From Bugula neritina (lineage: Eukaryota; Animalia; Bryozoa), in the NCBI GenBank assembly GCA_964035545.1, contig OZ037771.1, positions 13,515,133 to 13,579,132 on the forward strand: a DNA stretch of 64,000 nt, written 5' to 3'. The notes under the pieces are model-generated. The model was not told the origin of the DNA, did not search any database, and saw only the letters and a program-made list of their open reading frames with translations. The position numbers were made by a program, and so were the translations under genes. Below are positions 6,284 to 39,444 of the stretch, one piece after another (within the stretch, counting starts at the first letter, position 1; each line of letters opens with the position of its first letter).

Positions 6284-9200
6284 CTACTTGTCAGAAATAC
6301 AGTTGTTCAACCGGGCATTGTACTTCTGTTTTGTGTCCATGCAGGATGCCAGCAATTCCACTTTTCTAGATCCTTCTTTGGCAATCAACCTGTATCAATT
6401 ACACAGCAACACAATCATTACTATGTAAAAAATAAGTTTATAGTTGCTATCCTTGTGAGAAAACCCTGATGGAAAGGGTTTTGTTAGGAAGTACTAAGGA
6501 CTGGTTTAGATGAGGCACAGGAGCAATTATGGCTGGATGCTCTTCCTAACATCACCAATAGCCTTCTTCGCTTTGACCCCTAAACCACGGATGCTCCTCA
6601 CTACTATGTAGACATTGTAGTATTATACTATACTGAGTTACTGACCCTGTTACATTGTAGCAATTTTATTTTTAAAAATTATTGGCTTGTGGGAACTCTT
6701 ATGAGGATATTCTATTATGGATGTTACAAAAGACAATAGCATGCACGCACACACACATAACACACACACACATGCACACATGATAACCAAACTTACGCAG
6801 GTCTGTTACTAAGAACAAACAATTCCAATCTTTTCATGACGTTTGATTTGCTAAGATGCCTTCTTAACTTATCCATCAGAACTGCTGATTCAGAGGATCC
6901 CAAAACATAGACATTGTCGGTTGGCCAGTAAACAGTCAGTTGTCTGCCGTTACAGTGGTAGTATGGATTCATAGATGTAGAAAGACTGCAGTCTAAATTG
7001 GAATACAGGAAAAGTGGTGATTATGCTCTTTGCATAGAAATGTCCTATAAGCAGCTTGGAGTTAGGGGTGAATGAGTGCAGTAGTTTAGGGTTCTCAAGC
7101 TTGCAGTTGGGGGGTTCCACTGAAACCTTGACTCTAAAAAACTTCTGTCAAGTGTGGAGTTGGAGACTGACGCCATCTTGTTTATGTTGAATATTAGGAT
7201 AAAATTGGTAGAGTTGTAGTTGACAAGACTGTTATATTTTACGTATGTAGAAGAAGAGAAAGAACGAGAAAAGTATTGTGGGTAATATAATAAAGTATTC
7301 CTACAGAGAGAAGACAATTAATAGTATGGTTGTTTGTTAGTTATAAATGTTCATTGTCACAACAGCAGAAAATTGTATCCTATCAACATCAAGAGAGGAA
7401 AGCACAGTGAATTTACAGTGGATTTATAGTCACTATTTCTGTGAGAACTCCTGATGAAAAGGGTTTTTCAAACCAGGCTAAGGTTCTTAATTATGACTGA
7501 ATACCTTTCCTAACATCACCAATCGCCTTTACTGGGATTCGAACTACTGACTTTGTGTTTACTAAACCAGTACTCTAACTCCTAGACCTCAACTGTTCTC
7601 TTTTATGATTTGACTGATAATAAATGATAATAAATAAATCAAATTGATTTATACAGCCTAGTAATTCATACTAACCAAGTTCACATACTATACTCTGGAG
7701 TTTATTTTTCTGATGATTTAGTACCGTTTCTAGAACTCGTTTGCCGTAATCGTCTGCCCCGACTAAGCTACACTCCACTTCGTACTCGGCCATGAATGTT
7801 ATTCTTTTTGTCAAAGGAGTTTCTATAATAAAAGTTACTTTTACTGTATATAGTTTTAAATATAACTATAGTAAAAATTATTAGAAATTATTCTAGTCCC
7901 AACTTCCAGTAACAATATGTGGTATATAGTAGGTAGAGAGAGTGTCATTTGCTTTACCTACAAAATATAGTTCTGCATGTATAAATTATTGTTAAATCTT
8001 CAAATACATCTGTTATAATTATTTCATTGACCATATGTATGGCTATATATAGCTTCATATAATTCATTATATTACTGCATGGGATAAATGTGCAGCGTAG
8101 TTTGATTGATAAAATTTAAAACTATAATTTGCTGTCTAATTTTTTTTAAGTTCAGGAACACTTTATATTCAAATATCTTAAAAATAAATGGCAATTCAAA
8201 ATTATAAAATTTTGGCTCTCACTGGGACTCGAACCTAAGACTTCTGGCCTGCAAGCAAGCCTGCTATACCACTACACCACGGAGGCTACAGAGCAAACTC
8301 ATCCCTACAAAAGGATAAATTTATTTTATACTTACTGGTTACATTGACAGTGTAAGTACACGTTTCAGACATGGTCTTCTTCTTCATTAGGTATGAACCT
8401 TCAGGGAGACTTATTATGTTTCCGTCAACCAACTCCACTTTAGTTTCCTTTTGGCCTGGTTTCAGGTAGACTGTCATGTTCTCATACGGACACAAGGGGG
8501 GATAATACTGACTTCCTGTATTTATAAGAAGAAGTCTAGTAGAGTTTGTTTCAACAAAAAATATTTTTGCTGCAGAGTAGTTTGATATGTAATTATTTTA
8601 ATATAACAGCAAACACTGCCTCCCTGTTGTCTTAAAACTTCTTTTATTATTTTGTTTTAAGTTTATATTGCAAGAAAATTTTTCAAAGTTCAAATGTGAA
8701 CATTTTTGCTATACACAAAAACTTTCTGACTAGATGACGTAACATGTAATGAAACTATAACATTCACTATACGACAAGTATTAGTTAGAAACATAGTCAA
8801 TGATCTAAGCATTTTATCCAATGGGAGAGCAAGTTATAATAATATAAATGCAAATTATTTTTCAGGTAAGATAAAAAGTCCGTTTACTTACGGCTGAATG
8901 CGAAAATCCTAGAATATGCTCCAACATAAAGTTTCCCGTCTAAATTCAGCAACGATCTGGGTCCATAAGGGAAGCTCCCAGTAGTAGTAGTAAGCTTACA
9001 GCTATATCCTTGGTAAATACAAACATGACCAACCACTTGCTTGCTCATGTCTATCAGCTTCATTTTTCCCACATCATTTTGATAATCAATTACTATATAA
9101 GCATCATCGCCAAGGTTTGCAATGTCAGAAATAGCGCTAAAGCGGGCGTCATTAAACCGGCCGAAAGTATCGCCTGCTGTCTTTGAACCTGCTAAGACAC

Positions 9201-10407
9201 TATTGCTAACAGATCCATTATAAGCCCAGCTAACTAGAGAGATATATTTACCTCTGTTGACCACTAGTAGCTGCATGTCATGCCAACACAAACTCCGGGG
9301 ATATCTGAAGCCCGACCTGATTATGGTACTTGTCATTTTCGTTGTTGTGTCTACATACCTTAAAGCGTGATTGTTTGAGTCAGATATTATTAGTTTGTCT
9401 CGGTCTTTTGCGTCTAACACAGCTGCAAAGGGCCTGTTAAACAATGCATGCTCTCCATCTTGAAAACCCGCCGAGCCACATTTTCCAACAAAACTTTGAT
9501 AACGTTTTTCGTATCGACTGAGCAGTTTGATGCAATGCATGTCTTGAACAACTACAAACACATATTTAAGTGACGCTGATTGTGTAAAGCCGGTAATAGA
9601 GTTGACCTCATCTAAAACTACTGTGTCAGTCACGCATCCATCACTACTATACAGATGATTCTTTGTGGAATAGAGTAGAATGCTAGTTCTGTTGAAGCGG
9701 TCAGACTCCATGTGGGTGATGATGGAAGGTGTTCGAACGAAGCTGCTGATGTCATCATAGGACATGGTAGATAGTTCTCTCCACCTGGTGTAAATACAGT
9801 TTTGTTATTTATGCTAAAAATTGGTAGTGCAATACAATATAATACAATTGTTTTGCTTCAATCTGAACTCTAAGCTCAATTTATGTCTTGCACAAAAGCC
9901 ATTAGCATAGTCAAAGTAACAGTTATTGCCTTATTGTATTTTTATAAGTTAAATATAGATCTCATTGTTTACTGCTTTATTAAACTGAATGCTGCATATT
10001 AGTACTTACTCTGGTGGAGAAATATACTCTTCAGTCTTTACACAGGGTGTAATAGTTAACAGGATCTAAAATTAAATATATATCTAAAGTAAATATATAC
10101 TTAAAAAAAGCAACAGTGGTGTAGTGGTTAGAGTGCTGGCCTAGTATATGAACATAAGGTCAGTGGTGCAGTACAAACACTAGTGGTGATATGTTAGGAA
10201 GAGCATACAGTCATAATGCTCCTGTGTCACATATCAATAATAACCTACATTAACAAAAGCCTTCCCATTAGGGCTTCTAACATGGGTGTAGTGACTATAA
10301 ACTTGCAGGAACTTTTTTAAGTAACATATTTGACTGAATTTTTAGTTTAGAGCACTGGCTAAGGAACGATATTTACTTACCACTTTGAAGTACCATTGGC
10401 TTAACAT
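6284..10407 (-). CDS. NHL cluster gene G1: signal peptide + NHL propeller + HYR-like + Cys domain + tail, 7 exons, ~534 aa
   Basis: Exons 10407-10381, 10065-10010, 9784-8892, 8515-8336, 7822-7676, 6992-6797, 6389-6284 join in frame (1605 nt). N-terminus MLSQWYFKVILLTITPCVKT; NHL motifs VGKCGSAGFQDGEHALFNRP and IISDSNNHALR; ends SCMDTKQKYNARLNNCISDK*. Confidence 0.85.
6450..6600 (-). mobile_element. tRNA-derived SINE family A, degenerate copy
   Basis: Shares CCTTGTGAGAAA..GAGGCACAGGAGCAATTATGGCTGGATGCTCTTCCTAACATCACC with the copies at 7.4, 10.1, 40.9 and 54.1 kb. Confidence 0.7.
7425..7600 (-). mobile_element. tRNA-derived SINE family A
   Basis: B box (GGGATTCGAAC on + strand) plus the TTCCTAACATCACC body shared with other copies. 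Confidence 0.7.
8205..8309 (-). mobile_element. tRNA-like repeat family B
   Basis: Minus strand: TGTAGGGATGAGTTT leader, then GTGGTGTAGTGGT (A box), TTGCA loop, GGTTCGAGTCCC (B box). At least 7 diverged copies in the window. Confidence 0.7.
10110..10305 (+). mobile_element. tRNA-derived SINE family A
   Basis: GCAACAGTGGTGTAGTGGTTAGAGTGCTGGCCTAG head, then TGTTAGGAAGAGCATACAGTCATAA body and GACTATAAAC tail. Confidence 0.72.
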
Positions 10408-11648: not shown

Positions 11649-14365
11649 TTAATAGCCTATAAAAAGTTCCTGAGATCTAACTAAGATGTAAAAAGTACAC
11701 ATCTTGAAGTTATGTTGTCTTGTGATCTCGTAGTCGCCATTTGGCAGCTCAGCCGTGTGTCCATCTCCAACATCTACTCTGGCTGTCTCTTGACCAGCTG
11801 GATGGTAAATGGTCACGCTGTTGTACGGACATTCTTCTTTCATATTCTTTTCTAAAAATAGTAACAGGACATAGAAAGTTGCAGAGTATATGTTTAGATT
11901 GCTCACATTTCTTAGTAGCAAAATAAGTCTTCTTCAAAACTTGCAGTAATTATTTCTAGTGACACTTGCTTGGTGTGTTTATTTGTTTATGGTGAGATTG
12001 TTTGTGTAAATACTAATTGCAGTTTAGCACATTACAGAGTTTCCTCCTACCCCTTCCTTACTAAATTTCTCTCTCATTTTGAGACCTATGTATGTGTGTA
12101 TAGGAACAAAATGGTCAAATTTAATGGATTAGTCAGTCAAATCTGATATTTTATTATGTCACGAATTGAGGTTTTTAGGACCAGTAGCTTAAAGTGAAAT
12201 ACAAAGGCAGCATTTCATAGTAATGGAAAAATTGAAATAACCAAACTACTTTAATTTAATTGATAAAATTTGGTTTGGGTCGCTGGTTGAAATTATTTCC
12301 AGAGCAAAAATTCTTTTGCTCCATTTCTAATCTAGAGCATGCACAGGCTTTTATCAATTTTCCGTTACTGCACCTACCTATCATGCACATAACTTTTACT
12401 TACTGTTAAGTAATTTGATTCCTTTGATGAAGCCCACAAAGAGTTCATCTCCAACACTCATCAAAGAATATGGTTCAACTGGCAGCTCACAGTCTGTTTC
12501 TTCCTGCCTTTTAAAACAAATCTCTCCAACCAACTTTCTCTCCAAATCTATTAGCTTCACCTTTTTGTTCCCATAGTCACTTACAATGAACATTTTGTCT
12601 CCAATCTTCTCCAAACCACTCAGTCTTTTAAACCTTGCTTCATCGAACCCCCCAATTTTGTCTCCTGGAGTAGATGATCCACACAGTTTGACATTTCTCA
12701 CTGCACCATTCTGTTCCCAAGTAAGTTGGGAAATATAGCCTACTTGATTTGCAACCAGCAGCTGATGGTCTGCCCATTGCAGATCTTGGGGGTATTTGAG
12801 ACCAGACTGTATTACTGTTTGCAGATCTCTGGTGTTCAAATCCACTAACCTCACAGCGTTGTTAGTTTTGTCTGTAACTAGCAGTCTATTTGGGTTTCTC
12901 ACATCTGTAACAATTGCCCAAGGATTGTACATTCTTCCCACACCTATTCCTCCATTCCTATAGCCTTCCTTACCACATGTTCCCGCCAGATCTTCAAGTA
13001 GATTCAAGTCTCTGTCCAGAACTTTGATGCAGTGGTTTCTGTGATCAGCTATGGCTACGTGTGTGGCATTTACTTGTGTGAACCCGGTTACGGTTAGGAT
13101 GGTGAGGGTTTTACTTGTATAACCTCTGAGAGATTTCAGATAGTGACCATCAGCTATCAGGATACATTTGCCAAGTCTGTATTGATCTACTTCCATGTGC
13201 AGCACTGGGTAGGGGTTGTTGACGAAAGGCTGGAACTTATCAAAGATTGTTCTAAAAAATCATGCATAATATGATGCTAAATGATGACATGAGAGTCTCA
13301 TAGACAATGGAAATTTTTAACCCACACACCGCAATTTTACAAACTAAGCCAGTACAACTAGTTTTTTCAAACTGCCTAATTTGATCTGCGCTACTGGAAA
13401 TTACAATATTATAGAAATATTTTACGTTCAAATTAAATGCTAACATTGATTACACAGTCTACGATCAATTATCGATTTTAAAACATTTTCATTTTCACCA
13501 TCTCATGTGTTCAGTACAGGCTAAAACTAGCTATAATGTCTAAGCTTGGCTCGAAATTGTCTCCTGTTCTTTTTGATTAGCATCCAAAAATAAAACTGAT
13601 ATATAGAAAGTTATAAAAGTTCTCAAGAGTTGCCTTATCTGGAAGTTGGGTAATAAAGACTTTTAGCAAACTTTGTATTCTAACTTTTAGAGCAATAACT
13701 GTTACATGCTACAAGGAGATGTTTAGCTCTCAGCCTAATTTCCAAAGACAAGGCAAGTAGCAATGCATTAGTAACACAAACATTATTCAAACAAAATAGC
13801 AACTACAAAAATAATTTTTCCCAACATTTTTGTTTGAATTTAATATAGCTTCATTTTGCATAATGCTCACTTGAAACTATATTTTAAATATAGGTACATA
13901 GTATAAATGCGATTCAGTATTTTTGTTCCTGCTTTTCACCTGATTTTTTAAAAGTTGTTGACTAGAACACTAAAATAGTTGTATTAAAATTAAAACTTAC
14001 CTTGGCTCACCATTATTCTCAGCATATATCTTGCCAGAAAAAGCCACTGCTATCTACAAAACAGCAATATTCTTTTAACTTATTGACAAAATATTTTATT
14101 GCAAGCTGATTTTCTCTACTTAATTTCTTATGTAAATAAAAACCTAATATAATTACACTATTAGACTATTACATACTATTACACTTCATAATAGTTATAT
14201 ACTCACTAATGCAATCTACTATATAGTTATATAATATTATTATAATATTATATTATATTTATTCGCATACTATCATAATTTACTACAGCTATATATACTT
14301 ACTATAATTACTACTACAATCTACTAAATTTATGTACTTACTATTACAATCCACCAGGGCCCCAT
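11649..14365 (-). CDS. NHL cluster gene G2: signal peptide + NHL propeller + HYR-like, 4 exons, ~375 aa
   Basis: Exons 14365-14342 (MGPWWIVI), 14053-14001, 13251-12404, 11851-11649 are in frame (1128 nt). The HYR-like exon (CPYNSVTIYHPAGQ..LPNGDY..CTFYILV) lacks the donor seen in G1/G5 and runs to TAA. Confidence 0.82.
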
Positions 14366-15796: not shown

Positions 15797-18700
15797 ATGG
15801 CATTAGCACGGGTAGCAGCTGTAAGTATAGTTTGCTTTTAGTTTTACTAGTAATTTGCAAATTCAATTCTCGGCATAGTTTAATTTTTACATCTGAAGTG
15901 CTATATTGATACGTTTTAATTTTATATTATCTCAGCACTAGCTGTTTAATTTTACAGAAATATAATTTTCAAATGCTTACACCAACAGCTATTTAGAAAT
16001 ATGCAAAAACTGCAATATGTGCTTATGACTGTATTATTGTAACGTACGTGTAGGTCAATCACTAGTAGTAGTACTGCTATAACTTGCTATGGATAGGCTT
16101 ACATTATATATGGCATGTATAGTATTTTCATGAATCATGCTATTATCATTTATACTGTTTTATATTCTTATTCTAGTAATATAATATTGAATTGAATTAA
16201 CTTTGTCCATATAATATTATATGGACAAAGTTAATTCAATTTGTTAGTTAAAAGCAAACCAAATTCTATGTTAGCTTTGCACGCTTGAAGATTCCTAAAA
16301 TCTAAAAACACAACTTATTTGAATTTAATAGTCTGTGCTATTGTTAAAATTGCTGTATATTTTGGTAACTTTACTTTTAGATTCTGATGATCCTTACATC
16401 AAGGGTGACATCTGATGGACAAGTGAATTCAGGGTAAAACAACTTCTATACCTCTTACAAACACATGTCATTGCAAATCACATATCCTAACTTTTTGAAA
16501 AAAAACCAGATTTGTTTGCTTGGTGTGAGAGGAATTAGTTCAAAAATGAATTAAAAAAATTATTTCTGATATTTTTTTCTAGACTGAAATTTTTTTCAAT
16601 TTGTTGATTTGAAAATCTTAAAAACTCTTTACATTATTATAATATTACTTGGCTTAAATTTTTAACTGTACACTACAACAAGCATAAGATAAAGGAGGGA
16701 ATATTAACTGGAATAATTATTGGTTAGCAAATAATGCGAAAGACTTGCTGTCCGTTATGCAACTTCATTAGCAGCAAAGTTTCAAATCATAGACTGAATA
16801 TGTTGCGTAGCGTAGTGTGATGAATAACTCTCTTATACTTGCAAACTGGAGGCTTTGGGTTCAAAATTCAAATCCCAGTGGGAGCAAAAGTTTCATGGAA
16901 TGCAGCTTGCAACCTGTAACTTTTCAAAAGCCAGTGGTAGTTTACACTAAGAGTAGTCATTATCATTCTGCAGGCTAGTTGAATAAACTTAACAAGATTT
17001 TAATAAGCATTGTTTCATGCTTTTATTCTTTCCATGCTACATTACTAAGACCTTAATATTAGGTCTTTGGAATATTATGTAACATAATTTGTATATACTA
17101 GCTAAAATTATCATTTAATGCAGCAAAAACCATTTATTTCAGTGGGGGGCGGGTGTGTATAACTGCAAAATTGATAATTTACTAGGAAATTATTCTTTAA
17201 TTTACAGGTTTGCTGAGATTAAAATTAGATAGCAAATACTCAGTGAAAGCAATTGTTTCACTACTAATTGTGCAAATTCAAATAAATCTTAAAATTTGCC
17301 TTAATAAATATTAAAATTTTTATTTATTAACCTCTGAATATAGTAAAAAGTTGCTACTAGTAAATACATAGCAGTGCATTCTTGTAAAATTATTTATTTC
17401 AGCCTTATAAATAGCCTTTACATATTTTTACAAAGTAAGTTAAAGCAAACTTACTTTTGCTTTCTAGTTGACTTTGCAACAATTCAGGTTTTTTCCATTT
17501 ATTGAACAAGCATGAGATTCATCCGTGGAACAACAGTGAAAAATATTCTTAAATTTTACAAGAGTCAGGGTTCACATCTTTACAGTAGAAGAAGCTAACG
17601 TTTCTGACGAAATTAGCATATCAACAATAGCTCGGCCTATTTAGTCTAAGCTCTTGAGTAGCTTTAAGAGTTGCTACCTAAAAAATAATTGCCCCTACTG
17701 GGAATCGAACCCAAGACCTCTGGCTTGCAAACAAGCATGCTAACCATTACATCACAGGACCACTGGGTAAACTCATCACTACACTACCAAACAAATGCTT
17801 TAAATATCTGACTATCTACAGTGCTATTGTACCCTAGCTGCAGGTTTTTGCTGTAAACTGTGTTTATTTGCTTTTGATGCCATAAAAGGAACTCAGCTGA
17901 TGGTTAAGGCATACGATTAGAGAGTATTACAATAAAAAAATTATATACTCATTTATTTTTTTTCTTTTGGTATCGGTTGCTTTAGGTTGGAGAAGAGATT
18001 GTCATTCAAGTCTGAGTTTGATATCCGCTGTGAGTTGATAGACTATGATAATGATAGCAGACGGAGTCTGAGAACTTCTATTATAAGAAGAAAAGAGCAG
18101 CTACAGGGTCTCTGTGAAGAAGGTAGACAACTCCTGACATATGTGAATATCTTAAAGAATCCCTGAAACTATTTATGCTGTATTAAAATATCCATATATA
18201 TCTTAGTTAGTATCTACAGACTGTTTAAAGGTTGGATGCCCACGCAATTTTGTCTTATATTTAATTTTTTTGCAAACATGAATTGATTTAAGATTTCTTA
18301 CCACTTGCTGATGACATTCCTTGTTTCCTCTGAAGTCCTTGGTGTTATAAAACTAATAGTAATTAATGCTAACTTTTATTGCACAAAATATCTTATAAAA
18401 CAAAATTGTTTAACGTACAACTTTCAGAAGGTTTTTAGATAATTACTAAGGTACCTTATATATAAATATTGTAATATTGCATAAAGAAATGTTATGATGT
18501 GTGTTGAGGATTCTTTAAGTTCATTCATCACAAACATGATAGTTTCATAGACTTATTATATTGCATAGCTACTGCTTTCATAACGTTAAACATAATTAGC
18601 ACTAGCTACAAAGTTTGTTTTTATATGTGAGAAAATGTTTCAAAGTATATTAAATAAAATTAAATTTCATGATGTTTTTAATTTCTTTCTGATTAGATTG

Positions 18701-19170
18701 CATGATGTCATCAACAATGGACCCATTCTTTGACTGTACTAAGGACCATCTCACTGTGTATTGGCCGACAGACAATCTGTACAACAGAACCTCTCAGTTA
18801 CCACCAGCTACTATACGTAATAAACTGAAAAGAAAGCTCAGTCAATCAAATGTGATGAAAAACATGGAAATCTTCATCCTTTTCCATTCTCCTCCGTAAG
18901 TCAAAACTAAGATACATTGTAAACTTCATACTTATAAGACAAAGCTACTCCATTATGAAGTCTGCTACTTTTCCCAGTTGTAAAATGTTTTATAGAGTTG
19001 GTACAATATTCTGCTTATACTTATTAGGCTTTTGGCTTATTGTTTCATCTATTTATAGAGCAATAGCTGCCAACAAGAACTCTAGAGGAGAAAGTGTGGA
19101 TGTGGTTCTTTATTCAACGTGTGTAGATCAGACTAAACCTTATAATGTTGAAAGTGGTCAGTGCATCTAA
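15797..19170 (+). CDS. NHL cluster gene G3: propeller-less paralog, signal peptide + Cys domain + tail, 5 exons, ~174 aa
   Basis: Exons 15797-15820 (MALARVAA), 16381-16433, 17986-18122, 18697-18895, 19059-19170 are in frame (525 nt). Exons 1-2 have the family-typical 24/53-nt sizes; the last three exons are nearly identical to those of G5. Confidence 0.72.
16190..16241. repeat. Perfect 52-bp palindrome
   Basis: AATTGAATTAACTTTGTCCATATAAT|ATTATATGGACAAAGTTAATTCAATT. Confidence 0.95.
16800..16895 (+). mobile_element. tRNA-like repeat family B, degenerate
   Basis: GCGTAGCGTAGTG..CTTGCAAACTGGAGG..GGGTTCAAA..AATCCCAGTGGGAGCAAAAG. Confidence 0.5.
17690..17783 (-). mobile_element. tRNA-like repeat family B
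   Basis: GGGAATCGAACCCAAGACCTCTGGCTTGCAA..TAACCATTACATCACAGGACCACTGGGTAAACTCATCACTACA on the + strand. Confidence 0.72.
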
Positions 19171-21081: not shown

Positions 21082-21249
21082 CTACTACTACCACTACCAC
21101 TACCACCACCACTACCACTACCACTACCACTACCACTACCACTACCACTACCACTACCACTACCACTACCACTACCACTACCACTACCACTACCACTACC
21201 ATTACCACTACCACTACCACTATCACTACCACTACCACTACCACTACCA

Positions 21250-21309
<60 letters not shown>

Positions 21310-23135: not shown

Positions 23136-25686
23136 ATGGAGTGGTACCTGCTTACTTTTGTGAGTATTTTTATTTAGTTTATTTTATTTTTTCATACACT
23201 CATAGAAAAGTCTGTTTAACAATAATATCGATTTATATGGATTTAGATAGAAAACTTAATTAATCTATAATTTATGAAAAACTGAATTAGCCACCAGAGC
23301 TAAAAATGCTGTTGTTTCTATGTTTTTGCAACACAGGTACTTTAATAAACTATTCCTTGTATCAGTTTAGCTAAAAGTTATATTGAAGCTAGCTAATTTT
23401 AGAAATGAATCTTTTACTATAATATATTGAAAAGCCAGTAAATAGTAGCTGTATTGCTAGGCTTCTTTGGTCATGACTTTGAGGCTTTAAATTTCAAAAT
23501 CATTGAAAATAACTACAACATTTTATTTTTCTAAACTTCAGGCATTGGGAATAATTTTCAGTATTTGATATTTTTAGTGAACATTATACTTAGTGATGCC
23601 GTCCATGTATTATTTAGCACAAATTCAAACTGTACATTATCTTGACTGTATATTGATTCAACAATTATATGCTGTATAGTGTATGCCTTATTTCACTTTT
23701 TGTGCAATATAAATTAAAAAGTGTAATGCAATTTGTTTGTAGCTTAAGATTAGAGGGTAGTGATATTTAAAACCGAAACACACTGATTTTTAATTTATGT
23801 TTCTTATATTTTTGTAGCTTCTATTGGGTTACACAGGTCTGGCAAAGTCTGGTTCCCTCTCAAGGTAAATTTAAATTAATATGTTCTACTTTGGAAAATG
23901 CTTTCATGCACCCTCTTGTGTGTGTATATACCATTTAACATTGTAGGGCTATAGAGCAATGCTTTCGTTTGATGAAATTATTGTATTGATAAATGCTGTA
24001 ATGTTTTACAATATAAACCTCATAGTGAAAGTTGCTCAATCTCCTTCATAAATTATAATCAGTTACGTATTTCAATGCTTTTATAAGGTAAACCTGGTCG
24101 AACAGATAAATTGACACTTTGCCAGCGAATGCCTATTTGATAGACTTTGCTATTAGGTCTCTGGATGTAAAGTTCTCAGCATTTCTTGAAGTAATACACT
24201 TGTCCTACTCTTTTTATTAGTAATAAGTTTTATTCAGAAAGAAAATGTTGAGGTTCATGAAAATCTAATTTTTTACATCATTCAGGGGTTAAACTTAACT
24301 TTTTCAGCAACTCTTGTTTTGCTGTAACTGTAGTTCTATCACATGACATCATGTTATACTTATTCTAAGCATTGAATATTTTCAGTGTTTCGTTCAACAA
24401 AACTAAATTGATCTTCAAAGTATCTGAACTAGTTCACCACTTGGAGTTTGATAAATTCAAAGACGACGGGAGCATTCTCATTGGCACAAAGTCAAGATTC
24501 ATCACTTTCAATAATGATGAACACGAAATTCTACAATCTTTCTCAGTTCCTGGCTTTGTTCAAGTAAACATCACTCATGTAGTGCTAGCAGATGCCACTA
24601 GCTGGTGCCTCAGAATCCTGAACAGAAAGAACAATGTGACATCACCAGTTCTTAAAGGGACTTGTTTCCCTAGCCACACAGGTGTACCTAATTTGTACAA
24701 GCCATGGAAAGTTATAGAAGATATTAGGAATCCAGGAAATCTGTTGGTTACTGACAGGCAGGCAGACCTTCTGATGTCTGTAGATGTGAAGAACGGAGAA
24801 TGGAGTTCTGTAGCTGCACGTGGCTTGCATATGGTTGAATCAATGCAGTGGATGGGACAGCAGCTATTGCTGACCAGCAAATACAATGTGACTCGGCTGA
24901 CTTGGTCTGACGAAGGTGCTGTCAGTGTAGAGATCATTGCTGGTTCAGACAAGTCCGGAGACAAGCTTGGAAAACTGCTTTCTGCTAAGTTTAACCAACT
25001 TGCTGGAATTGGAAAGCTAGAAAAAAACAAGTTCATTCTTGCCGATTCCCTAAACTTCAAAATGAAGCTGATGGACATGGATGAAAACACTGTCGGTCCT
25101 GTTTGTTATGAGAGAGACTTCCCTAAGTATATAAAATGCAAGTGTACAGAGTGGCCTTACTCTTTTCTTAGTGATGGAGACACTCTTTATGTAGGAACAG
25201 ATGAAGGTGTCCAGAAGTTGAGTGGTAAGTTGAACCTGAGATTACCTGCTCTTAAAAATGCAGTTCACTATAAGGTTTAAATATAGTAGAAATAGTTTAA
25301 TGCATACATGTTGATTTTAATGATTAACATTAACTTTAGTACAATAGATTAGCCTCGGATACTAGAATAATATACTTCCAAATGGAGTAATAGGTCAAAT
25401 GTCTACGTTTAGAAAGTAGGTCACTGCCAAAATTTTACTTTTAAAACTTTTTCTATTAAACCAAAATATTTTCTGATTCCAGGTAAAAGTGAAACCTTTT
25501 AAATGTGTCAGCAATGTGTATAAACTGAGCTGGACTGAATATAAGTGTGCTGAATTTATACTGTAGGAAGGAAGTTTTATTTCTGCTAAGATGAACTCTG
25601 AAGGTCAACTCATTCAACTGGTGTTTCACTCTTCCTGTGCTGACGAAACTCTGTCTTATGATGCCGAAACTGACACCTGCTCTTAG
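23136..25686 (+). CDS. NHL cluster gene G4: signal peptide + divergent NHL propeller; 3' end ambiguous (tail exon only)
   Basis: Exons 23136-23159 (MEWYLLTF), 23818-23864, 24386-25224 (donor G|gtaagt). No HYR or Cys-domain exons. A tail-exon homolog (FISAKMNSEGQLIQLVFHSSCADETLSYDAETDTCS*) ends at 25686. Alternative ends are the unspliced stop at 25280 or a short out-of-frame end via the 25566 acceptor. Confidence 0.75.
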
Positions 25687-27050: not shown

Positions 27051-30000
27051 ATGCAGTGTTATTGGCCGGTAGCTGTAAGTAAAATACATTTTATTCCTAA
27101 GAATATGTTTTGAAATTTGTACTAATTTTATGCTTCACAACTTTCATTTATCTACATAATTGCTATTTAAGAATTATAATGAAAACACTTTGTTTAAATG
27201 CTTGTTTTTTTAATGCTAATTATAGTGGGAGTACCACCATTAAAATAAGAGCTATTGTCACACATATATATTTGCAGTATAAAGCAGCAACGAAGTTAAT
27301 AAGTTGAAAAAATATTTACTTGTTTTTATATTCAAACTAATAGTTTGGACTTTTAAGCTACACAAATAGCTATGTTTTCCTTCCTTTTTGAAACAAAGAA
27401 TAGCTTATGTAAAGTGCTGTTTTAACTTAATCAAAGCTTTTAATAATTTTAACAGCTTTACAAAATTATGTAACTTTGGTGTAAATAAATAGCTGTTCAG
27501 TACATTCTATTTCAATTATTGTAATATTTTAGATCGTAGGCCTTTTCGTTGGCTGTGTAGCTGCTAATGATGAACTTCAACCAAGGTACGATGTTTACTA
27601 TTTTTTCATTTTGAAAAACTACCTACTAGCTGCTAACCATAAGTGAAGCAGTTGTGTTAATAAACTCTATTGTCTTATAATTTAACAACTGACTTGTGGC
27701 TTCTTCACTTTACTGCTTAAGATATTATATGATTTGCCAAGTTCACATTTCCATCTGCTGCTCACAATGGCTTCACCCCAGATAGAAGCTTCCCAGTTAG
27801 ATGGTACTTTTTATTTTGGTACTATTAGCTAATAGAAATTATTTGGTATATTATTTCAATTTTCTCAAATATGTGTAGCTATGGGACATAAAAGCACTAA
27901 TACATTAATAATAGATATTATCTTTAATGAATACTCATTAACAAAATATCTTTTCAAACAAAAAGAAGTATAGATAATGCAAAATAATTGAGTTAATGCA
28001 GAGCAAAGAAATTTATTTATGTGCTAAATTACAAGCAATTGATCCAAGTTTTTTTAAAGATTAATATATTTCAATAATTTTAAAAAAAATTGCACAAAGG
28101 ATATATACTGTACCAAAATAAATAAATAGCGTCTAACTGGGAAGTGTCTATCTAACATGACACCTTCACAACGTCTGTAACAGACTTTAAAGGATTGCTC
28201 TATCTTAGTTTATTACAATCACATTATAATTATGAACTATAATCTAATGTGTATGCAAACAATTGTGACTTTGCAAAGGGATAGATGCCTAGAAAACAGC
28301 TTTTCAAAATTCCAATTTTGAGGGAGGTAAAATTTTCAGTCATGAAAAAGAATAGCCTAATACGTGACGTGTGAACGCCAGTAACTATGCTGCACGTGCT
28401 AACTATAACGCTAGTATTCAATGTTGCTGAGCGCAACATCAACCAATAACGCTCAAGCAGTTACAGTGCGCTATATAGGTCAGCTTTGGTGCGCCTATAA
28501 TATTGCACAATCTGACCTAGTTTAGATCGATCGCAGGCATTCATCCTAAAGAATGCATGTTTTTGCGATGCTTTTTTCTATGCTTACAAGCAAAATATGG
28601 CCTAATGTTATCACATACATGTTATTTAACATGTCAAAAAACTATAGATTGAGATAATTCACATTTGCACTTCTATAAATATACAAATTACGAGCTGAAA
28701 GATCACATCTCACAGTCATATTTCTATAGTTATTCATTTGTATAGTCACGTGACCAGCAGGAATGCTGGCGCTGTTACGTCACAGTTCCCAGCTCATTTC
28801 AAAATCGGCGTTTTGGCTGTTACCAATCTACACCCTCAACTTCAACTAACTTTTTCTACCTTTGGTCAAATGCTTTTTGTCAATGCATGCTTAGAAAAAC
28901 ACAATATTATGTGTGTTTGACCTAAATGGCCATTTATTAGACAAGATAGAGCAATCCTTTAAGGCCTCCTATCTTTTACCAAATACTTCTGGTTTTAGTC
29001 TCTTGTTCAGAAGTTCCACGCTCTTCCTCAACTCCACGCATCAAGTCCTACATATGGAAGTTGATAGGTACAAAAACGATGGAAGCATTCTGATTGGCAG
29101 TTCACAAAATCATCTTCAAACTACCAATGGGCAGACAACCACAACTTTGATAGCTGACCTTTCAGTCTCGGGTTTCACACAAATCAACAGAACTCACCTG
29201 GCAATAGTCGCTCAAATGATTCATTGCATCAAAATATTAAACAGAGACAACATGTTTACACAGACCCTTGCAGGAACATGTGGCACCAATGGTTACGCTG
29301 AAGGCGGGGTGGGAGTAGGACGTCTCTACAATCCGTGGGGAGTAGTCTTAGATATCAGGAACCCAGGTAATCTGTTAGTTACAGATAAACACAACAATGC
29401 ACTGAGGTCTGTAGATCTGAGAACAGGAGAACTGAGTACAGTCATCAATATGGGATTTAATGAGCCAGTAAAGATGCTGTGGGCAAACAGTACTCTGTTG
29501 GTGGTCAACCATCAACACTACATTTCTCAAGTGAGCTGGTTAGGAGATGAACACATTAGCAATAATGTTATAGCTGGTTCAATTATAGAAGGAGACGTGC
29601 TGGGGGGATTTGATGTGGCCAAGTTTAGCTTTCCCTTTGAAATAGAGAGAGTGGGATACAATATGTACATGGTTAGTGACTATGGGAATGAAAAGCTGAA
29701 GTTGTTGGATATGAATAGGCAAACAGTTGGCATAGTCTGTTACAGACGGATAGATGAGAATGAGACAAGCTGTAACCCTCCAGATGAGCCGGTAGCTCTG
29801 CTAAATATTAATAATACAGTCTATGTGGGACCTGATGAAGGACAGATCCATGCATTCAGTGGTGAGTTTTGATATTCTTGCTCTATAATATCGCCAACTA
29901 TCAATAGATGTTTAGGCATGGTAGAAAACCTCAAAAATATTTTACAGCATGATAGAAAACTAGAAAGATATGCGTCAGCATGATATATTCTTGCTATTGT

Positions 30001-31657
30001 TTTTATCATAATAATTAATCAACAAAATTCTACATAATAGCAATCATGATCTGTGTATATGTATAGAAAACATTAAAAAGTTGCAAGTTTCTATTCTTTA
30101 AAAGTTGAAAAATATATTAAATAAACAGTTTTGTATTTATTTAGTGTTTGATTTTTTAGGCACAACGTTTTTACCAGATGTCTGTCCACACAAGAATATC
30201 ACAGCCCTGCTGGCTCTAAATCAAAGCACAGTTAGCGTTTACCTGGGTGAAGGTCAAACAGAAAGTTTCCCAGAAGGTATTCACATGAAATCTGTGCCAT
30301 TTAATTCTCGAAGCTGCACTTACTACGTTATTGTAGAAAGTAAGTATCTAAGTCTATTCTCTAAAAATGTAGACAACATAATATGTACACATAACTTAAA
30401 CGTTTAGGTGATTGTAGTTCTGATACCAAACCTGGTAGTGCAATAACATTTTACTTTTAAATTACAAAAAGCTGATGCGATCCTTACAGCAAAGTCTGTT
30501 ATGGAAGTTGGGCTTTAGACATCATTGTTAAATGCAATTACATTCATATAAAATTTGATTTAAAGCTCATTATTTGAAACTTTACTGAACCGTAGGAGCA
30601 AGGGTAAAAAGAAGACTGTCATTCAAGTCTGAGTTTGATGTCGGCTGTGAGTTGATAGACTATGATAATGATAGCAGACGGAGTCTGAGAACTTCTATTA
30701 TAAGAAGAAAAGATCAGCTACAGAGTATCTGTGAAGAAGGTAGACAACTCTTGACATATATATGAATATCTTAAAGAATCCCTACACTAATTATGACAGA
30801 TGGGGAAATTTTGAGTTTGCTGAATCGATCACATAGCTAGTAGTTTCTTTTTCAAGTTTGTAAAAAAATTCTAAAATATGTTGAAATAAGACTGAATTAT
30901 TTTGTTTAGATTGCATGATGTCATCAACAATGGACCCAATCTTTGACTGTACTAAGGACCATCTCACTGTGTATTGGCCAACAGACAATCTGTACAACAC
31001 AACCTCTCAGTTACCACCAGCTACTATACGTAATAAACTGAAAAGAAAGCTCAGTCAATCAAATGTGATGAAAAACATGGAAATCTTTATCCTTTTTCAT
31101 TCTCCTCCGTAAGTTGAAATTTTTCCTGAAAACTCTTTTAGACCAAGCTTCTTATACCTAACTTGCTTCAGATAATTGATTTCCTTATCCTAATAGAGTC
31201 TAGGAAAACTTCTGGAAAATTACACTTAAAGTTTATTTATTGATGCTAACAGTTTATAAGTGTAGCTGACACTGAAAAAATGGTTTACTCTATTTATTGT
31301 ATACGCTTGTTTGTCATTAAAATATTTGCCTAAGATTTATGGCAATCATACATTATGCATGAATACTGATTGTAAAACCTTTTAATCTTTGATAAAGTTT
31401 TTCCGGCCTTACAAATTTCTTTCTGTATATGCATATTTATGTATATTGCATTAGGCCTATATTATAGTATATTTATTATATATATATATGAGTTATAATT
31501 CTTAAATTTACCGTTTGCTAACATTTTTTTTATTCATATCTCCAGAGCAGTTGCTGCCAACAAGAACTCTAGAGGAGAAAGTGTGGATGTGGTTCTCTAT
31601 TCAACATGTGTGGATCAGACCAAACCTTATAATGTTAGAAGTGATCAGTGCATCTAA
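27051..31657 (+). CDS. NHL cluster gene G5: full architecture, 7 exons, ~524 aa
   Basis: Exons 27051-27074 (MQCYWPVA), 27533-27585, 28999-29861, 30160-30339, 30596-30739, 30910-31108, 31546-31657 are in frame (1575 nt). NHL motif LAGTCGTNGYAEGGVGVGRLYNPWGV. Confidence 0.87.
27780..28150. mobile_element. MITE family M1 copy in G5 intron 2
   Basis: Inverted ends CTTCCCAGTTAGA ... TCTAACTGGGAAG; interior in opposite orientation to the 52-kb copy. Confidence 0.68.
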
Positions 31658-33612: not shown

Positions 33613-36159
33613 ATGGCTTTCTCCTGGTGGTTTGTGGCTGTAAGTAAAATTTTCTTATTATTCTGTTTATATTTAAAAACCGCAAATGCTAATTTTAAAA
33701 TGATAAATATTGTATAAAATAAAAGAATATTTCTTATTATGTAATAAGTGTGTTTGAAACGAAACATGAGTGAGATAATAAAGAATGAAAAACTAGTTAA
33801 TGAAAAGTCCAACAGCTATTTTAGAGCTAGCTTTGCATATGCTTTTTAAAGGTTTTAAAATAAATTTATTATTTTTCAGATTTTAGCTACTAGTAGCACA
33901 TGGTTTGCATCAAGTGAAGCTATTGCACCAAGGTAAATGAATTTTACATTATTTAGTCTAGCTACTTATTAGTGGAATTATTTTGGTTACTTTATACCAA
34001 GTTGTTTAAAGTATCGCTATGTAAATTTACCATAAAAAAATTATTTCACAAATAAGGCACTATTTAAAAATAGTATTAGGTTTTTTTAGACTTATGAATT
34101 GCTTCACATTATTTTATGGCAGTTAAACACAAGAATATTCAATTTTCAATGTTTATTTCCTATTAGAATTTTATTTAAAGCTTAGAAGTTGTTTCTCTAA
34201 AATTTTTGCCGTTCTTTGGTTAATATTTTGTTATTTATTGCATGAGTCATATTAAATCAAGCTTGCAATATTTAATAAAATATAGAATATAATATATTAT
34301 TTTACAAATTAAAACTGAATCTATTTGATAGCTTTTAAATTTACACTGAAATATTTTTTATACATTTCCTAGAGCTATTTTCATGAACTTAACTTGCATG
34401 TTATATTAATCAATTCACAAGGTTGTGTTTGAATGCTGTTTGTTTAAATATATGCTTTCTTTTTTAATAATTGTATTTATAGTTATTTAATGTATCATTT
34501 TAAGCAAAAACTTCAAAGACGTCCAACTGTTTTTGAACACAAGTCATCCAATTTTTCACATGGAGCTCGACAAGTTTAAAGATGATGGAAGCTTTCTAAT
34601 CAGTTCTAACAAACATCTTCAAACTACAAATGGAAAGGAAACAAGCAACCTCCTGTCATCTTTAATTACAAGCTTTACACAAGAGAGCACAATTCATGTG
34701 TATGTAGTGGATCACTACAGGCATTGTATAAAGAAATTCAACAGGAAGAAGAACAAATCAAGGACCTTAGCTGGAACCTGTGCTACCAGTGGATATGCTG
34801 AAGGAACAGTTGGAGTGGGCCGACTTAATAGACCATGGGGTGTGGTGGTTGATATCAGAAACCCAGGCAAATTACTGGTGACTGATAGAAATAACCACGC
34901 TCTGAGGTCTGTTGATGTGAAGACCGGAGAACTGAGTACTGTGATAAAGTTACATGGCCTTTTCCTTCCTAATAGTCTGGTCTGGTCAGGAAAAGATTTG
35001 CTGGTGACCAACCATTTCAGCATTTCAAGAGTTGACTGGTTGACCACTAACCAAGCTAGGAACACACTTTTGGTTGGTACGGGAACTTCAGGTCACAAGT
35101 TAGGCAGCTTTAATACGGCTCAATTCTCATCTATTATACATATAGCGAAACTGGAGGAAGGAAAGTATCTGGTTGCAGATTATGGCAGCAAAAGGCTGAA
35201 GCTGTTAGATATGGATGAAAAAGTCGTTGGCTTTGTTTGTATTAGAGAATCAGTAACTGAAAGTTGTGATCTTTCTGAGAAGCCCTTGTCTATGCTTAGT
35301 GTAGGAGAGACTCTGTATGTTGGAACAGAAAGAGGAATTTATGAATTGAAAGGTGAGTAAATTTAATCATGGAGCTTAGTGGTAAATTTTATCTGTAATT
35401 CAAAACTTAAACAGTTTTAGCAATATATTATGAGCAATCATTATTGATCTATTATACTGTTTTCTTGAATAAAAAATACGCTAATTTTATAATACAAAAC
35501 CACTAATTTTTCTTAGCACTAGCTATATTTGAAGTTACTGACAGCATTTTAAGTTTAAATCTTCTACGCACTGAAGTTTTGCATGCAGAGTTAGCAAAAT
35601 GTTTGTTACATTCTAATTTTAGAAAATAAAATACGAAAAAGACTGGTATTCAAAGCAGAGTACGATATAGCATGCTATGCAGTGATAGAAAATAGTGCTG
35701 GTAGAAAAGAAAAAATGAAAGAAATAATGCTGAATAGAAGAACACTGCTGCAAGACATCTGTGCTCAGAGTAAGTCCCTAAAAGTGTGCACAACTCCAAT
35801 TTCTGAAATTTAAATTTTTTGAATACAAGCTATCAACTTACTATTGATTAAAATCAAACTTTGAATTTGGCCAGAGATTCTTGAACATCATAAACCTAAT
35901 TGTGATGAAACATATAATTTATCTAGCTATATTATATCTATTTTTAGATTGCACCATGTCCACCACTCTACAACCTTCCTATGAATGTCGCCGTGAATAT
36001 CTTCTGATCCAGTACTGGCCCACAGACACATTTTACCCAGCCAGTATAAAAGAGCCACCTCAGGCCTTATTCCATGAGCTCAAGAATCGTCTCGGCGCAT
36101 CTACTTTGATGAAAGCTCTTGGGGTTTATCCCATCTTGTCAAAGCCTGTCATTGTTTAG
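33613..36159 (+). CDS. NHL cluster gene G6: signal peptide + NHL propeller + Cys domain (no HYR-like exon, no tail), 5 exons, ~428 aa
   Basis: Exons 33613-33639 (MAFSWWFVA), 33880-33932, 34505-35352, 35623-35769, 35948-36159 are in frame (1287 nt). Confidence 0.85.
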
Positions 36160-37145
36160 TCTAAGAAAAATATTTGCATGTGTCTGTAACTTCACTCACT
36201 CAATATAATATGTTATATTATATATATTATATATGGTGATGCAAAAAGATCTTAATTCATGGCTCATTTAAATCTTTCATCAATAAAAGTGAATCACCAC
36301 AGTATAAAACACTAAGCATTTGTGTTTATACAACATTGCATGATTACACTAAAATATATTTAAATTAGTTCTGCTTTAAATATGCCATGCAATTGGAATG
36401 GATGAAAATGAATACTTCAGCATATATATATATATATATATATATAGTAGAACTTTAAAATATTCAATTAAGTTGTCATTTAATTATAATGCCACTATAT
36501 ACTTAACTTTAACAAATTAACTAGGCAATGTGTGCCTCAATTAAACAATTTAAGTATTGTGTTAAAATAAAGCGATATTTAATATTATTCACACAGCAAT
36601 TATGCAAAATACATGGATAAAACCACGGCATGTGTTGTATCTACCAAAAAATACATCATAAACCTTTCTGCTTATCAGTTTAAATGCAAGATGTATAATT
36701 AAAATACAGTTGTTGAAATGTATTTTTGAGGCAAAAGATTTTCTCAGTAGGTATAGCAAATGAACTATAACCTAAAATGGCCAATAGGTGAGAGTTTCAG
36801 CTCAGTGCTTATAGCATTAATATATTATTACATGTTTTTGTTTTCTACATGTACCACACCAACATACTTTATTCATATTAGACAATGAGAGTTTTGTTTA
36901 ACAAATGTAATATTGGATTTGTATTATAATTTCTAGTCTAAACCAGACCAATCTCACAAAAATAATTAACATTATAAAAAATAAATTTGTAAAAACATAG
37001 TTATTAAATTTTTCGACTTTGTAATCTAAGCAGATACGAAACTCGTAATTATAGTAATTTATATATTTAGTTTATATGTTCCTTTAACTCAGAAGAACAA
37101 TATTGTGGGGTAGACTTGCATTAGACTGTTGAAACTGTAGCAACC

Positions 37146-39444
37146 ATGACTTACTGGTACTTTGGGATTGTAAGTATGGTATGATATTCTTTATCAATGT
37201 ATATGCAAAATATATATATTTGAAATTGTTAAACATTTACTTCTTAAAATGTTGGACTTTTTGTATTTCAGATTGTAGCAGTTTCTATCAAATGTATAAA
37301 AACTGATGAAACCATCAACTTTGGGTAAGAAATGTAGTGTATTCTTTAAATGAATATATTATGTCACATCTTACTATATCATATAACATGAACCTCTTTG
37401 AAATAGACTGGTTTATTTTATTCAAATTTTTTACAATAACAGCTGAGCTATTTTAAAATTGAATACTCTGGATTACTTAAACCTAAACACTACTTTTTTC
37501 TTCATAAATAAATCATGCATTTTTCAACATCTTTCTTTAATTAGAAGCATCTGTACTAGTTATTAGAAGTTGTCATATTTAAATTTGTGTTTGTAGTATT
37601 CTATACAACCATGCTGAGCTGTTCATCAAAACAAATGCCCCTGTTTTCCACATGGAGGTTGACCAGTATAAAAACGATGGTAGCCTTTTAATTGGCACCA
37701 AAAGTCATCTCCAAACTGTCAACACTAAGAAGATTACAGACCTTGCAACACTATTGGTAACAGGGTTTGTACAAGTGAACAAAACACACAACTTTATAGT
37801 AGACAACCAGAAACACTGCATCAAAGTGATAAACAGGGAGAATAATCAACTGAGAGACTTTGCAGGAACTTGTGGCACCAGTGGCTATGCAGAAGGTCGA
37901 CTGGGTGTAGGCAGGTTCCATAAACCGTGGGGTGTTATAGCTGATATTTTAAATCATGACAGACTTTTGGTAGCCGATAAAAGTAACCATGCTATACGGT
38001 CAGTTAATATAAAAACAGGAGAAGTGGGTACGGTGATAAAAAATGGATTTTTCTTTCCTAAAAGTTTGCAATGGGAAGGCCCAATCCTCAAGGTAACCAA
38101 CTATAATTTTATCACAATGGTTGGCTGGTGGAAAAATGGAGAAGTTACCAACACTCACATGGCTGGAACAACAAAAAAAGGAGACATTTTTGGCAGTTTT
38201 GATATGGCTCAATTTGGAATGCTTACAGACGTGGAAAGAGTGAGAGAAAACCAATATCTTGTTGCTGATTTTGAAAACAGCAAACTGAAGATTCTTGATA
38301 TGATTAATGGAGTTGTCAGCCCTGTCTGCTCCAAAGGGACGACAACAGAATGTAGCCTTCCGGATGAGCCGATTTCCATGCTGAATTTTGGCAATAATTT
38401 GTATGTTGGAACACAGAAGCATATCTACAAGCTAACTGGTGAATTAAACTAATCATGTTATGATCATGATATTATTTTTAATGTATAATCAGTAATATAG
38501 CTGCATGTTTTATGAAACTTTTTTTGTAAGCTAATAAATTTTGTCTCCACATAGGGTTCAAACCTAAGACCTCCAGCTTGCAAGCAAATGTGCTAACCAT
38601 TACACCACAGGACCACTTGGTAAACTCAGCACTACATCCTACCCAGTTCTCTGAACTTCACTGGCCTACCTACTACTCCTTCAGTCTTCAGACTCCTTTA
38701 GAGTACTACTAATACACTTTAGGCCTACTAAAAGCCGAAATAGCATGTAAAATATTTTTGCCTGCACTGGGATTCGAACCCAAGACCTCTGGCTTGCAGT
38801 AAGGAGCTAACCATTACACTAGGAAGACCACTGAATAAACTCTTCACTACAACTTTGTGTTTGTCAATTGCTAAAATTCAGTTTCTTTTCTATAACTTTA
38901 GATTTATATAAGCAACGTTCAGTAAACTTTCACATATTAATCAAATGTTTGCAATTTTTGTATTTTAGAGACACCAACACGAAAAAGACTGGTATTCAAA
39001 TCAGAGTACGCTATAGCATGCTATGCAGTGATAGAAAATAGTACTGGTAGAAAAGCAAAATTGAAGGAAATAATGCTAGATAGAAGAACAATGCTACAAG
39101 ACATCTGTGCTCAAAGTTAGTCCTTAAAAGTGTGCACAACTCCAAATTTTACATGCTAAAAGCTACTGCATGCATATGAGCTATCAAAATGTGATGGACA
39201 TTAAAAGCTATCTATATTATTTGTCTGTCTAGATTGCACCATGTCCACCACTCTACAACCTTCCTATGAATGCGCCCATGAGTATCTTCTGATCCAGTAC
39301 TGGCCAACGGACACTCTGTATCCCGCCATTATGCAAAAACCACCTCAGCCCTTATTCAATGAGCTGAAAAAGCGCCTCCACAAATTTCCCTTGACGAAGG
39401 CTCTTGGGATTTATCCCATCTTGTCTAAACCTTTCTCCATTTAA
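37146..39444 (+). CDS. NHL cluster gene G7: same architecture as G6, 5 exons, ~425 aa
   Basis: Exons 37146-37169 (MTYWYFGI), 37272-37324, 37597-38438, 38969-39115, 39233-39444 are in frame (1278 nt). Confidence 0.85.
38525..38851 (-). mobile_element. Two adjacent copies of tRNA-like repeat family B (38525-38636, 38746-38851) in G7 intron 3
   Basis: Both contain AACC(C/T)AAGACCTC..GCTTGCA..CTAACCATTACAC..GACCAC..TAAACTC..CACTACA. Confidence 0.72.

Follow-up and report, generated by a model that had tools for sequence, protein, structure and literature searches.

The window analysed here, a 64,000-nucleotide stretch of the genome of the bryozoan Bugula neritina (contig OZ037771.1), holds a tandem cluster of seven related genes, G1 to G7, that encode predicted secreted proteins assembled from an NHL-type propeller head and a stalk. 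The cluster spans positions 6284-39444, with stop codons at 6284 and 39444 as its outer ends. G1 and G2 lie on the minus strand and G3-G7 on the plus strand, and six long open reading frames of ~290 codons each, of which two are minus-strand and four plus-strand, are the propeller exons.

Gene models and transcript evidence

Gene models were built from splice signals, and profiles of the modules were run on the six frames of the window. All seven models have GT-AG introns and no internal stop, and they encode 175-535 residues. The profile inventory comprises six propeller, three HYR-like, five CysA, five CysB and four tail exons; no exon remnants were found elsewhere in the window by these profiles, with nothing further above 4 bits. 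G1 and G5 are complete, G2 has the propeller and the HYR-like exon, G3 the stalk only, G4 propeller and tail, and G6 and G7 propeller, CysA and CysB. The exons are listed below with the evidence for each in brackets, where X1, X2, X4 and X8 are sequencing runs and P0203 is a GenBank protein.

10381..10407, minus: G1 exon 1, start of predicted signal peptide (model; GenBank P0203 start identical)
10010..10065, minus: G1 exon 2, remainder of predicted signal peptide, phase 0-2 (model; P0203)
8892..9784, minus: G1 NHL propeller, phase 2-1, acceptor 9784 (as P0203) or 9745 (profile; P0203)
8336..8515, minus: G1 HYR-like, phase 1-1 (profile; P0203)
7676..7822, minus: G1 CysA, first half of predicted SEA-like domain, phase 1-1 (profile; P0203)
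6797..6992, minus: G1 CysB, second half of predicted SEA-like domain, phase 1-2 (model; profile)
6284..6389, minus: G1 Cys-pair tail, to stop (model; profile)
14342..14365, minus: G2 exon 1 (prediction)
14001..14053, minus: G2 exon 2 (model)
12404..13251, minus: G2 NHL propeller (Pfam NHL; profile)
11649..11851, minus: G2 HYR-like, donor lost, runs to stop (model; profile)
15797..15820, plus: G3 exon 1 (prediction)
16381..16433, plus: G3 exon 2 (model)
17986..18122, plus: G3 CysA, shifted phase-2 acceptor, apparent recent copy of G5 type (sequence comparison)
18697..18895, plus: G3 CysB, 97% amino-acid identity with G5 CysB (sequence comparison)
19059..19170, plus: G3 tail, to stop (sequence comparison; model)
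23136..23159, plus: G4 exon 1 (model; X1 contig at the propeller contig's depth)
23818..23864, plus: G4 exon 2 (joint to propeller exon in X1, X8)
24386..25224, plus: G4 NHL propeller (RNA-type contigs; profile; dN/dS 0.12 versus X1)
25567..25686, plus: G4 tail, three tandem acceptors (RNA-type contigs)
27051..27074, plus: G5 exon 1 (joint in X1, X4)
27533..27585, plus: G5 exon 2 (joints in X1, X4, X8)
28999..29861, plus: G5 NHL propeller, predicted six-bladed (RNA-type contigs, which set the acceptor at 28999; fold model)
30160..30339, plus: G5 HYR-like, phase 1-1 (joints in 4/4 runs)
30596..30739, plus: G5 CysA (joints in 4/4 runs)
30910..31108, plus: G5 CysB (joints in 4/4 runs)
31546..31657, plus: G5 tail, to stop (joint in 4/4 runs)
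33613..33639, plus: G6 exon 1 (joints from 33639 in X1, X4)
33880..33932, plus: G6 exon 2 (model; RNA-type contigs)
34505..35352, plus: G6 NHL propeller (Pfam NHL; RNA-type contigs)
35623..35769, plus: G6 CysA, spliced straight to propeller exon (joint in 4/4 runs)
35948..36159, plus: G6 CysB, donor lost, runs to stop (joint in X1, X2, X4)
37146..37169, plus: G7 exon 1 (prediction)
37272..37324, plus: G7 exon 2 (model)
37597..38438, plus: G7 NHL propeller (Pfam NHL; profile; X4, X8 loose ends joined to G7 CysA)
38969..39115, plus: G7 CysA, apparently recently common to G6 (sequence comparison; loose ends)
39233..39444, plus: G7 CysB, donor lost, runs to stop (model; X2 loose end reads stop region)

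A first-pass annotation of this DNA had described a seven-gene cluster with these architectures and with two small first exons, and the inventory and the open models agree with it on both points (exon 1 has 24 or 27 nt, exon 2 has 47-56 nt). Its assignment of phase 1-1 to the HYR-like and CysA exons holds for the HYR-like exons of G1 and G5 and for the CysA exons of G1, G5, G6 and G7, but not for G3 CysA, whose acceptor is shifted to phase 2, nor for the G2 HYR-like exon, which has no donor. Donors have also been lost from the CysB exons of G6 and G7, and all three donor-less exons are read to a stop. The first-exon pattern is not specific by itself (16 matches within 4000-42000, seven of them used), so the first exons rest on RNA for G4, G5 and G6 and on the GenBank model for G1. 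The starts of G2 and G3 lie head to head, 1.4 kb apart (14365-15797), and could share a promoter.

All seven proteins begin with a hydrophobic N-terminus and have a putative cleavage site at residue 19-20, where position -1 is small in 7/7 and position -3 small or aliphatic in 6/7; the signal peptide was called by heuristic only. No membrane segment was detected in any of the seven, as no 19-residue window past residue 25 exceeds 1.23 on the Kyte-Doolittle scale. We predict that the family is secreted via a cleaved signal peptide, which is what the first-pass annotation had proposed for these NHL-propeller proteins. The two Cys pairs that it considered conserved are present in all six propellers, with disulfide pairing as a prediction, and the absence of a transmembrane segment was likewise read correctly. 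The NxS/T sequons that it called numerous do occur (4, 1, 2, 4, 9, 3 and 3 in G1 to G7), but only G5 is rich in them.

Fourteen sequencing runs contain part of G5; 13 of them are guessed to be RNA, and none is recorded as such. Contigs from four runs (X1, X2, X4 and X8, from four studies) were placed on 22900-36200, where they skip the predicted introns exactly. In G5, the propeller-HYR, HYR-CysA, CysA-CysB and CysB-tail joints are found in all four runs, the joint of exon 2 to the propeller in three and that of exon 1 to exon 2 in two. In G6, the propeller is joined directly to CysA, with no HYR-like exon, in 4/4 runs, and CysA to CysB in three; in G4, exon 2 is joined to the propeller in two runs and the propeller to the tail in one. 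For G7, loose contig ends join the propeller end to the CysA start (X4, X8) and read the stop region (X2). Just before 30617, a loose end of 9 letters agrees by eye with G3 in 7/9 letters and with G5 in 5/9, a weak hint at most. The G1 model is 88% identical over 434 columns to P0203 (KAF6040527.1, EB796_001164), a Bugula neritina hypothetical protein that carries no annotation, has the same first five exons and ends after CysA. The predicted junctions are seen in RNA-type contigs for G4, G5 and G6, as loose ends for G7 and, for the first five exons of G1, through the GenBank model. A complete architecture is also found outside the window: the relative P0063, with 520 residues and 40% identity to the G5 model across 522 columns, carries a signal-like start, propeller, HYR-like segment, CysA, CysB and tail in one reading frame.

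Loose ends at 29713, 30985, 34817 and 34853 enter propeller-like or CysB-like letters for which none of G1-G7 is a match by eye; expression of additional family members encoded outside the window is therefore likely. At 35988-36106, X1 and X2 share an in-frame skip of 117 nt with non-canonical ends within a G6-type CysB exon; its probable source is an allele with a deletion or a further paralogue.

Predicted folds of head and stalk

The G5 propeller is modelled with 24 strands in six four-stranded blades (predicted local distance difference test, pLDDT, 96). The closest solved proteins in the profile search are SOQ1 and NHLRC2 (E 5.5e-20 and 1.1e-16), which also match best in fold (SOQ1: Z 30.5, root-mean-square deviation (rmsd) 2.2, 267 residues aligned; NHLRC2: Z 29.9, rmsd 2.5, 269 aligned), and TRIM-NHL domains are weaker matches (Z ~26). 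On the model, the head is a six-bladed NHL propeller of the NHLRC2/SOQ1 type and not of the TRIM-NHL type. The Pfam NHL profile (PF01436; cut-off 20 bits) is passed by three of the six propellers (G2 21.2, G6 40.1, G7 24.5); G5 scores 15.6, and G1 and G4 give no match. Among the aligned family members, 23/36 match it at E <=0.1.

When 1.84 billion representatives were searched with a profile, 42,995 matched at E <=0.001. Among the matches listed, 29/150 cover the entire profile without a break and are family members; the others are long proteins with many repeats. Of 1053 candidates in a word-based search, 32 matched, 30 of them family members. Longer relatives of the propeller made up 11 of 7986 scored, each matching weakly and in part. 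Atlas look-alikes are mostly bacterial, with TEN_NHL among them, and a bacterial origin of the single-exon propeller was accordingly considered as a possibility. The family may be lineage-specific, as the first-pass annotation proposed, but a species name appears on only one record in the 30 clusters of relatives checked. In 35 of 55 relatives (P0001-P0030 and 25 others, counted from rows) the propeller closes with one of G, C or R followed by E or K. These endings fit read-through of a phase-1 donor, so a single-exon propeller followed by a 3' intron looks conserved across the family.

The stalk of P0063 was folded from an alignment of eight rows, and the model has a mean pLDDT of 63, with 70-83 across most of CysA and CysB. 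The first-pass annotation treated CysA and CysB as two modules; the model instead gives one alpha/beta domain with a predicted beta-alpha-beta-beta-alpha order, of which CysA and CysB are predicted to be the two halves. The modelled arrangement is ferredoxin-like, or SEA-like, and a single domain would explain why the two exons, which always co-occur, are never found apart. The best fold matches include alpha-dystroglycan (Z 6.3), the MUC16 SEA domain (Z 6.0) and TMPRSS6; all are <=6.3 and tied with unrelated ferredoxin-like folds, and on this model 'SEA-like' denotes an arrangement, not membership of the family. The unbroken P0063 stalk had no match to Pfam SEA at E <=10, and searches with the stalk gave no usable Atlas match, no PDB sequence match and no Foldseek match at E <=0.001. 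When the CysB alignment was run against longer proteins, 0/394 candidates scored.

The HYR-like exon encodes ~58 residues that are modelled as two strands with pLDDT 50-67 and are barely covered by the fold search. Its name follows a motif that we take to be that of HYR domains. Pfam HYR (PF02494) was not matched at E <=10 by any of the three exons, the P0063 stalk or P0203, so that the first-pass label finds no backing in Pfam, and the HYR-like profile itself matched only repeats, by chance.

Proposed duplication, exon loss and stalk exchange

Module order is identical in the seven genes and in P0063, and free exon shuffling was rejected for this reason. Pairs of propellers are 25-48% identical, as strongly diverged as the first-pass annotation had stated, and their synonymous sites are saturated in 15/15 pairs (proportion of differing synonymous sites, pS, 0.67-0.77), so the duplications are old. 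A quick tree of the propellers left most forks open and was uninformative on a single origin of those in the window.

Two pairs of genes differ in their stalk exons from this pattern. Between G6 and G7, pS is 0.67 for the propellers versus 0.15 for CysA and 0.36 for CysB. Between G3 and G5 it is 0.15, 0.08 and 0.21 for CysA, CysB and tail; the similarity of their signal exons is 46-49%, and most of their introns do not align. With 24-47 synonymous sites underlying each exon value, the simplest reading is that the stalk exons of both pairs were recently converted or partially duplicated. We propose an ancient duplication of an ancestral gene of seven exons (signal, signal, propeller, HYR-like, CysA, CysB, tail), after which copies lost stalk exons, with lost donors shortening G2, G6 and G7. 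Loss of the HYR-like exon, which is gone from G6 and G7, stays in frame because its phase is 1-1. Later stalk exchange between G3 and G5 and between G6 and G7 would have placed different heads on near-identical stalks and left one stalk headless (G3). The 'combinatorial kit' of the first-pass annotation is therefore partly true: exon loss and two stalk exchanges stand, but the architectures are nested deletions of one seven-exon gene in fixed order.

In G4, the loss of three exons produced a phase clash at the tail. Three acceptors precede the tail (TAG 25564-66, AAG 25568-70 and AAG 25572-74), and in the window it is in frame only via the middle one, since the TAG acceptor leads to a stop after six residues. 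The tail exon of G4 in X1 lacks 46 nt relative to the window, which brings the final Cys pair into frame from the TAG acceptor. The clash thus has two solutions, the shorter exon in X1 and, if it is solved at all in the window, a neighbouring acceptor there. G4 has a ratio of nonsynonymous to synonymous substitution rates (dN/dS) of 0.12 relative to X1 (160 codons with listed differences), and G3 and G5 differ at a proportion of 0.040 of nonsynonymous sites (pN) versus 0.133 of synonymous ones. G4 and G3 are under purifying selection and are not decaying. The first-pass annotation had named decay of the reduced genes as what would undo its proposal; these values and the RNA-type contigs argue against such decay.

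The variable top face, proposed function and known systems

NHL domains bind partners on their top surface, according to PMC9070667. We defined the top face as the d-to-a and b-to-c loops of the predicted strands and the bottom face as the a-to-b and c-to-d loops. In a first clade of 17 relatives that are 74-87% identical (P0001-16 and P0018), mean entropy is 1.27 bits on the top (59 sites), 0.35 on the bottom (66 sites) and 0.29 elsewhere (permutation p <1e-4), and the top face, with 22% of the sites, accounts for 18 of the 20 most variable ones. A second clade of six behaves alike (top 0.73, bottom 0.11, elsewhere 0.18); P0022 is in neither clade and was left out. The 20 most variable columns contain 17.6% Tyr, 7.4% His and 8.9% Arg, versus 4.1, 1.7 and 3.6% overall, and antibody binding sites are likewise rich in these residues. 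Between G1 and P0203, 28/284 sites differ, and 15 of these 28 fall on the 69 top-face sites (Fisher p 4e-4).

We hypothesize, with a probability of about 0.55, that the cluster encodes soluble recognition proteins that bind differing targets through the variable top face, probably microbial or other non-self surfaces. The proteins would be exported by means of the cleaved signal peptide, and each head would bind its own target. The stalk may act as a spacer, a matrix anchor or a shared effector handle that links the head to a common partner. For a filter-feeding, symbiont-bearing colony, microbial surfaces would be the likeliest targets; allorecognition is possible, and soluble proteins with no anchor fit it less well. 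The first-pass annotation offered recognition, adhesion or matrix as functions, and it is recognition that gains evidence, because of the top-face variability in the two clades and in G1. More tentatively, and with odds well short of even, we speculate that bryozoans hold a germline immune or self/non-self NHL repertoire, in which secreted heads, numbering in the dozens and bearing an antibody-like hypervariable face rich in Tyr, sit on stalks that genes swap like constant regions and serve to distinguish symbionts from pathogens or related colonies from unrelated ones.

Several observations weigh against soluble recognition through the top face. The faces were assigned after the alignment had already been seen, and the variable clades are known as proteins only and may mix paralogues, alleles and species; two metagenome scans for the DNA of relatives gave 249 and 92 pattern matches, none confirmed. 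Changes in G4 have no top bias (3/10 on top, where 39/160 sites are top), 11 pooled clusters of close relatives give 3.9% on top versus 2.8% on the bottom (p 0.16), and the six window propellers, which are saturated and too diverged to show such a bias, have none either (p 0.62). A conserved bottom could be explained by packing on the stalk, much as the NHL domain of teneurin packs on its neighbours, with constraint relaxed on the top. Quality of the stalk model is moderate (mean pLDDT 63, best Z 6.3). The contigs are from runs whose RNA origin is a guess, and over the listed pieces they deviate from the window by ~3-9 letters per 100, so their source is a related population or a sister species, and their junction support covers G4-G6 and the loose ends of G7, with the junctions of G1-G3 outside the placed region.

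Alternatively, the proteins could have a structural or adhesive role in cuticle, mucus or larval cement, with heads and stalks cross-linking the matrix and top variability reflecting relaxed constraint on an exposed surface. The predicted export, the Cys pairs, the sequons and stalk fold matches that include the extracellular alpha-dystroglycan and MUC16 SEA (Z 6.3 and 6.0) are consistent with such a role, as is the lack of top bias in G4 and the pooled close pairs. We nevertheless consider it rather improbable, since the proteins have no repeats and no low-complexity or collagen-like parts, the bottom loops are conserved though also exposed in head-only members, and the enrichment of Tyr, His and Arg resembles a binding surface rather than drift. 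An enzymatic role, in which secreted six-bladed lactonases or amidating lyases tune their substrates (for example bacterial signal molecules) through the top face, has in its favour a lactonase-type fold match (2p4o; Z 26.8, rmsd 2.2, 243 aligned), weak matches named 'sugar lactone lactonase YvrE' and a His-Met-Glu-x-Asp motif in blade 1 with an invariant Asp and a nearly invariant Glu. This role is unlikely, because tunnel-mouth residues of blades 3-6, where we presume the metal ligands to lie, vary freely and the nearest folds are non-enzymatic NHL domains. Finally, that one or two full genes function in a birth-and-death family and the shortened copies are drifting remnants, as the lost donors of G2, G6 and G7, a G4 tail that X1's acceptor leaves out of frame here and a key G3 junction resting on prediction might suggest, is hard to credit against seven open frames despite saturated propeller synonymous sites, the dN/dS of G4, a pN/pS of ~0.3 for G3/G5, the G4, G6 and G7 forms in RNA-type contigs and the absence of decayed exon remnants from the window.

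If soluble recognition is correct, the NHL propeller joins the animal scaffolds for diversified recognition. Bryozoans are colonial hosts of bacterial symbionts, and the family provides candidates for telling microbes or neighbours apart. If the role is only structural, the cluster still represents a domain architecture that has apparently not been described, along with a clear example of how exons are lost and stalks exchanged among tandem genes.

The remainder of the window contains an 8-kb tandem duplication (39838-47835 and 52988-60964; 94% identical), and both copies contain a long frame without introns, in which 132-nt TPR repeats come after a nucleotidyltransferase-like (DUF294) region. 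TPR repeats are more numerous in the first copy, which has an in-frame stop at 48355-48357; the second is open for 1044 codons. A 24-nt ATG micro-exon candidate resembling the first exons of the cluster lies at 40436-40459, with a copy near 53590; no propeller or stalk exon follows, and it may be chance or part of the TPR gene. A dispersed repeat of ~330-390 nt, resembling a miniature inverted-repeat transposable element, occurs at 15121-15489, 27823-28147 and 52079-52445, the last with inverted ends at 52066-52139 and 52469-52542. Short tRNA-like copies of a short interspersed element recur (for example 8207-8309, 17679-17788 and 38536-38851), and a 347-nt direct tandem duplication at 50900-51614 (99% identical) is possibly an assembly echo.

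No description of NHL proteins in bryozoans was found in the papers searched (supplements, in which annotation tables of bryozoan genomes might include these genes, lay outside the search), and NHL, propeller and HYR do not occur in the accessible main text of two recent genome and proteome papers (PMC13326412, PMC13425148). The architecture and the hypervariable NHL face are apparently undescribed; propellers as such, and tandem duplication, loss of exons and conversion as processes, are known. Human NHLRC2 and Arabidopsis SOQ1 are the best matches in sequence and fold, at 16-19% identity. Both carry a thioredoxin-like domain before the propeller, where the window family has a predicted signal peptide, no room for such a domain and no Pfam match, and they differ from the family in the two Cys pairs that it adds and in the stalk that follows its propeller. 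TRIM-NHL proteins (Brat, TRIM71, Thin and Mei-P26) share the common six-bladed fold (Z ~26), but their RING, B-box and coiled coil are absent from the family, in which only 26-28 residues precede the propeller exon (in P0063, 53 precede the profile match). The SEA or S6-like ferredoxin folds of MUC16, TMPRSS6 and alpha-dystroglycan have a similar predicted alpha/beta arrangement (Z 5.7-6.3, rmsd 3.7-4.5, 92-110 aligned); CysA and CysB differ from them in the low score (Z <8), four Cys, no Pfam match and the lack of what we take to be the cleavage motif, G-S-V-V. In SVEP1 and Uninflatable, HYR, an unnamed domain and a Cys-rich cassette presumably follow one another in an order like that of the HYR-like exon, alpha/beta domain and Cys pair here.

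FREPs, C1q-domain proteins and Sp185/333 are tandem, secreted families with a variable binding end on a constant part and exchange between paralogues. The window family resembles them in these traits, its secretion and binding end being predicted, and uses another scaffold, the NHL propeller. Teneurin likewise has an extracellular NHL propeller, whose top-face loops are held by disulfides; in PMC5851990 this propeller sets homophilic specificity in recognition, and its bottom face packs on neighbouring domains. The window family is without teneurin's YD shell, EGF repeats and membrane segment, and is instead a small soluble multigene family.

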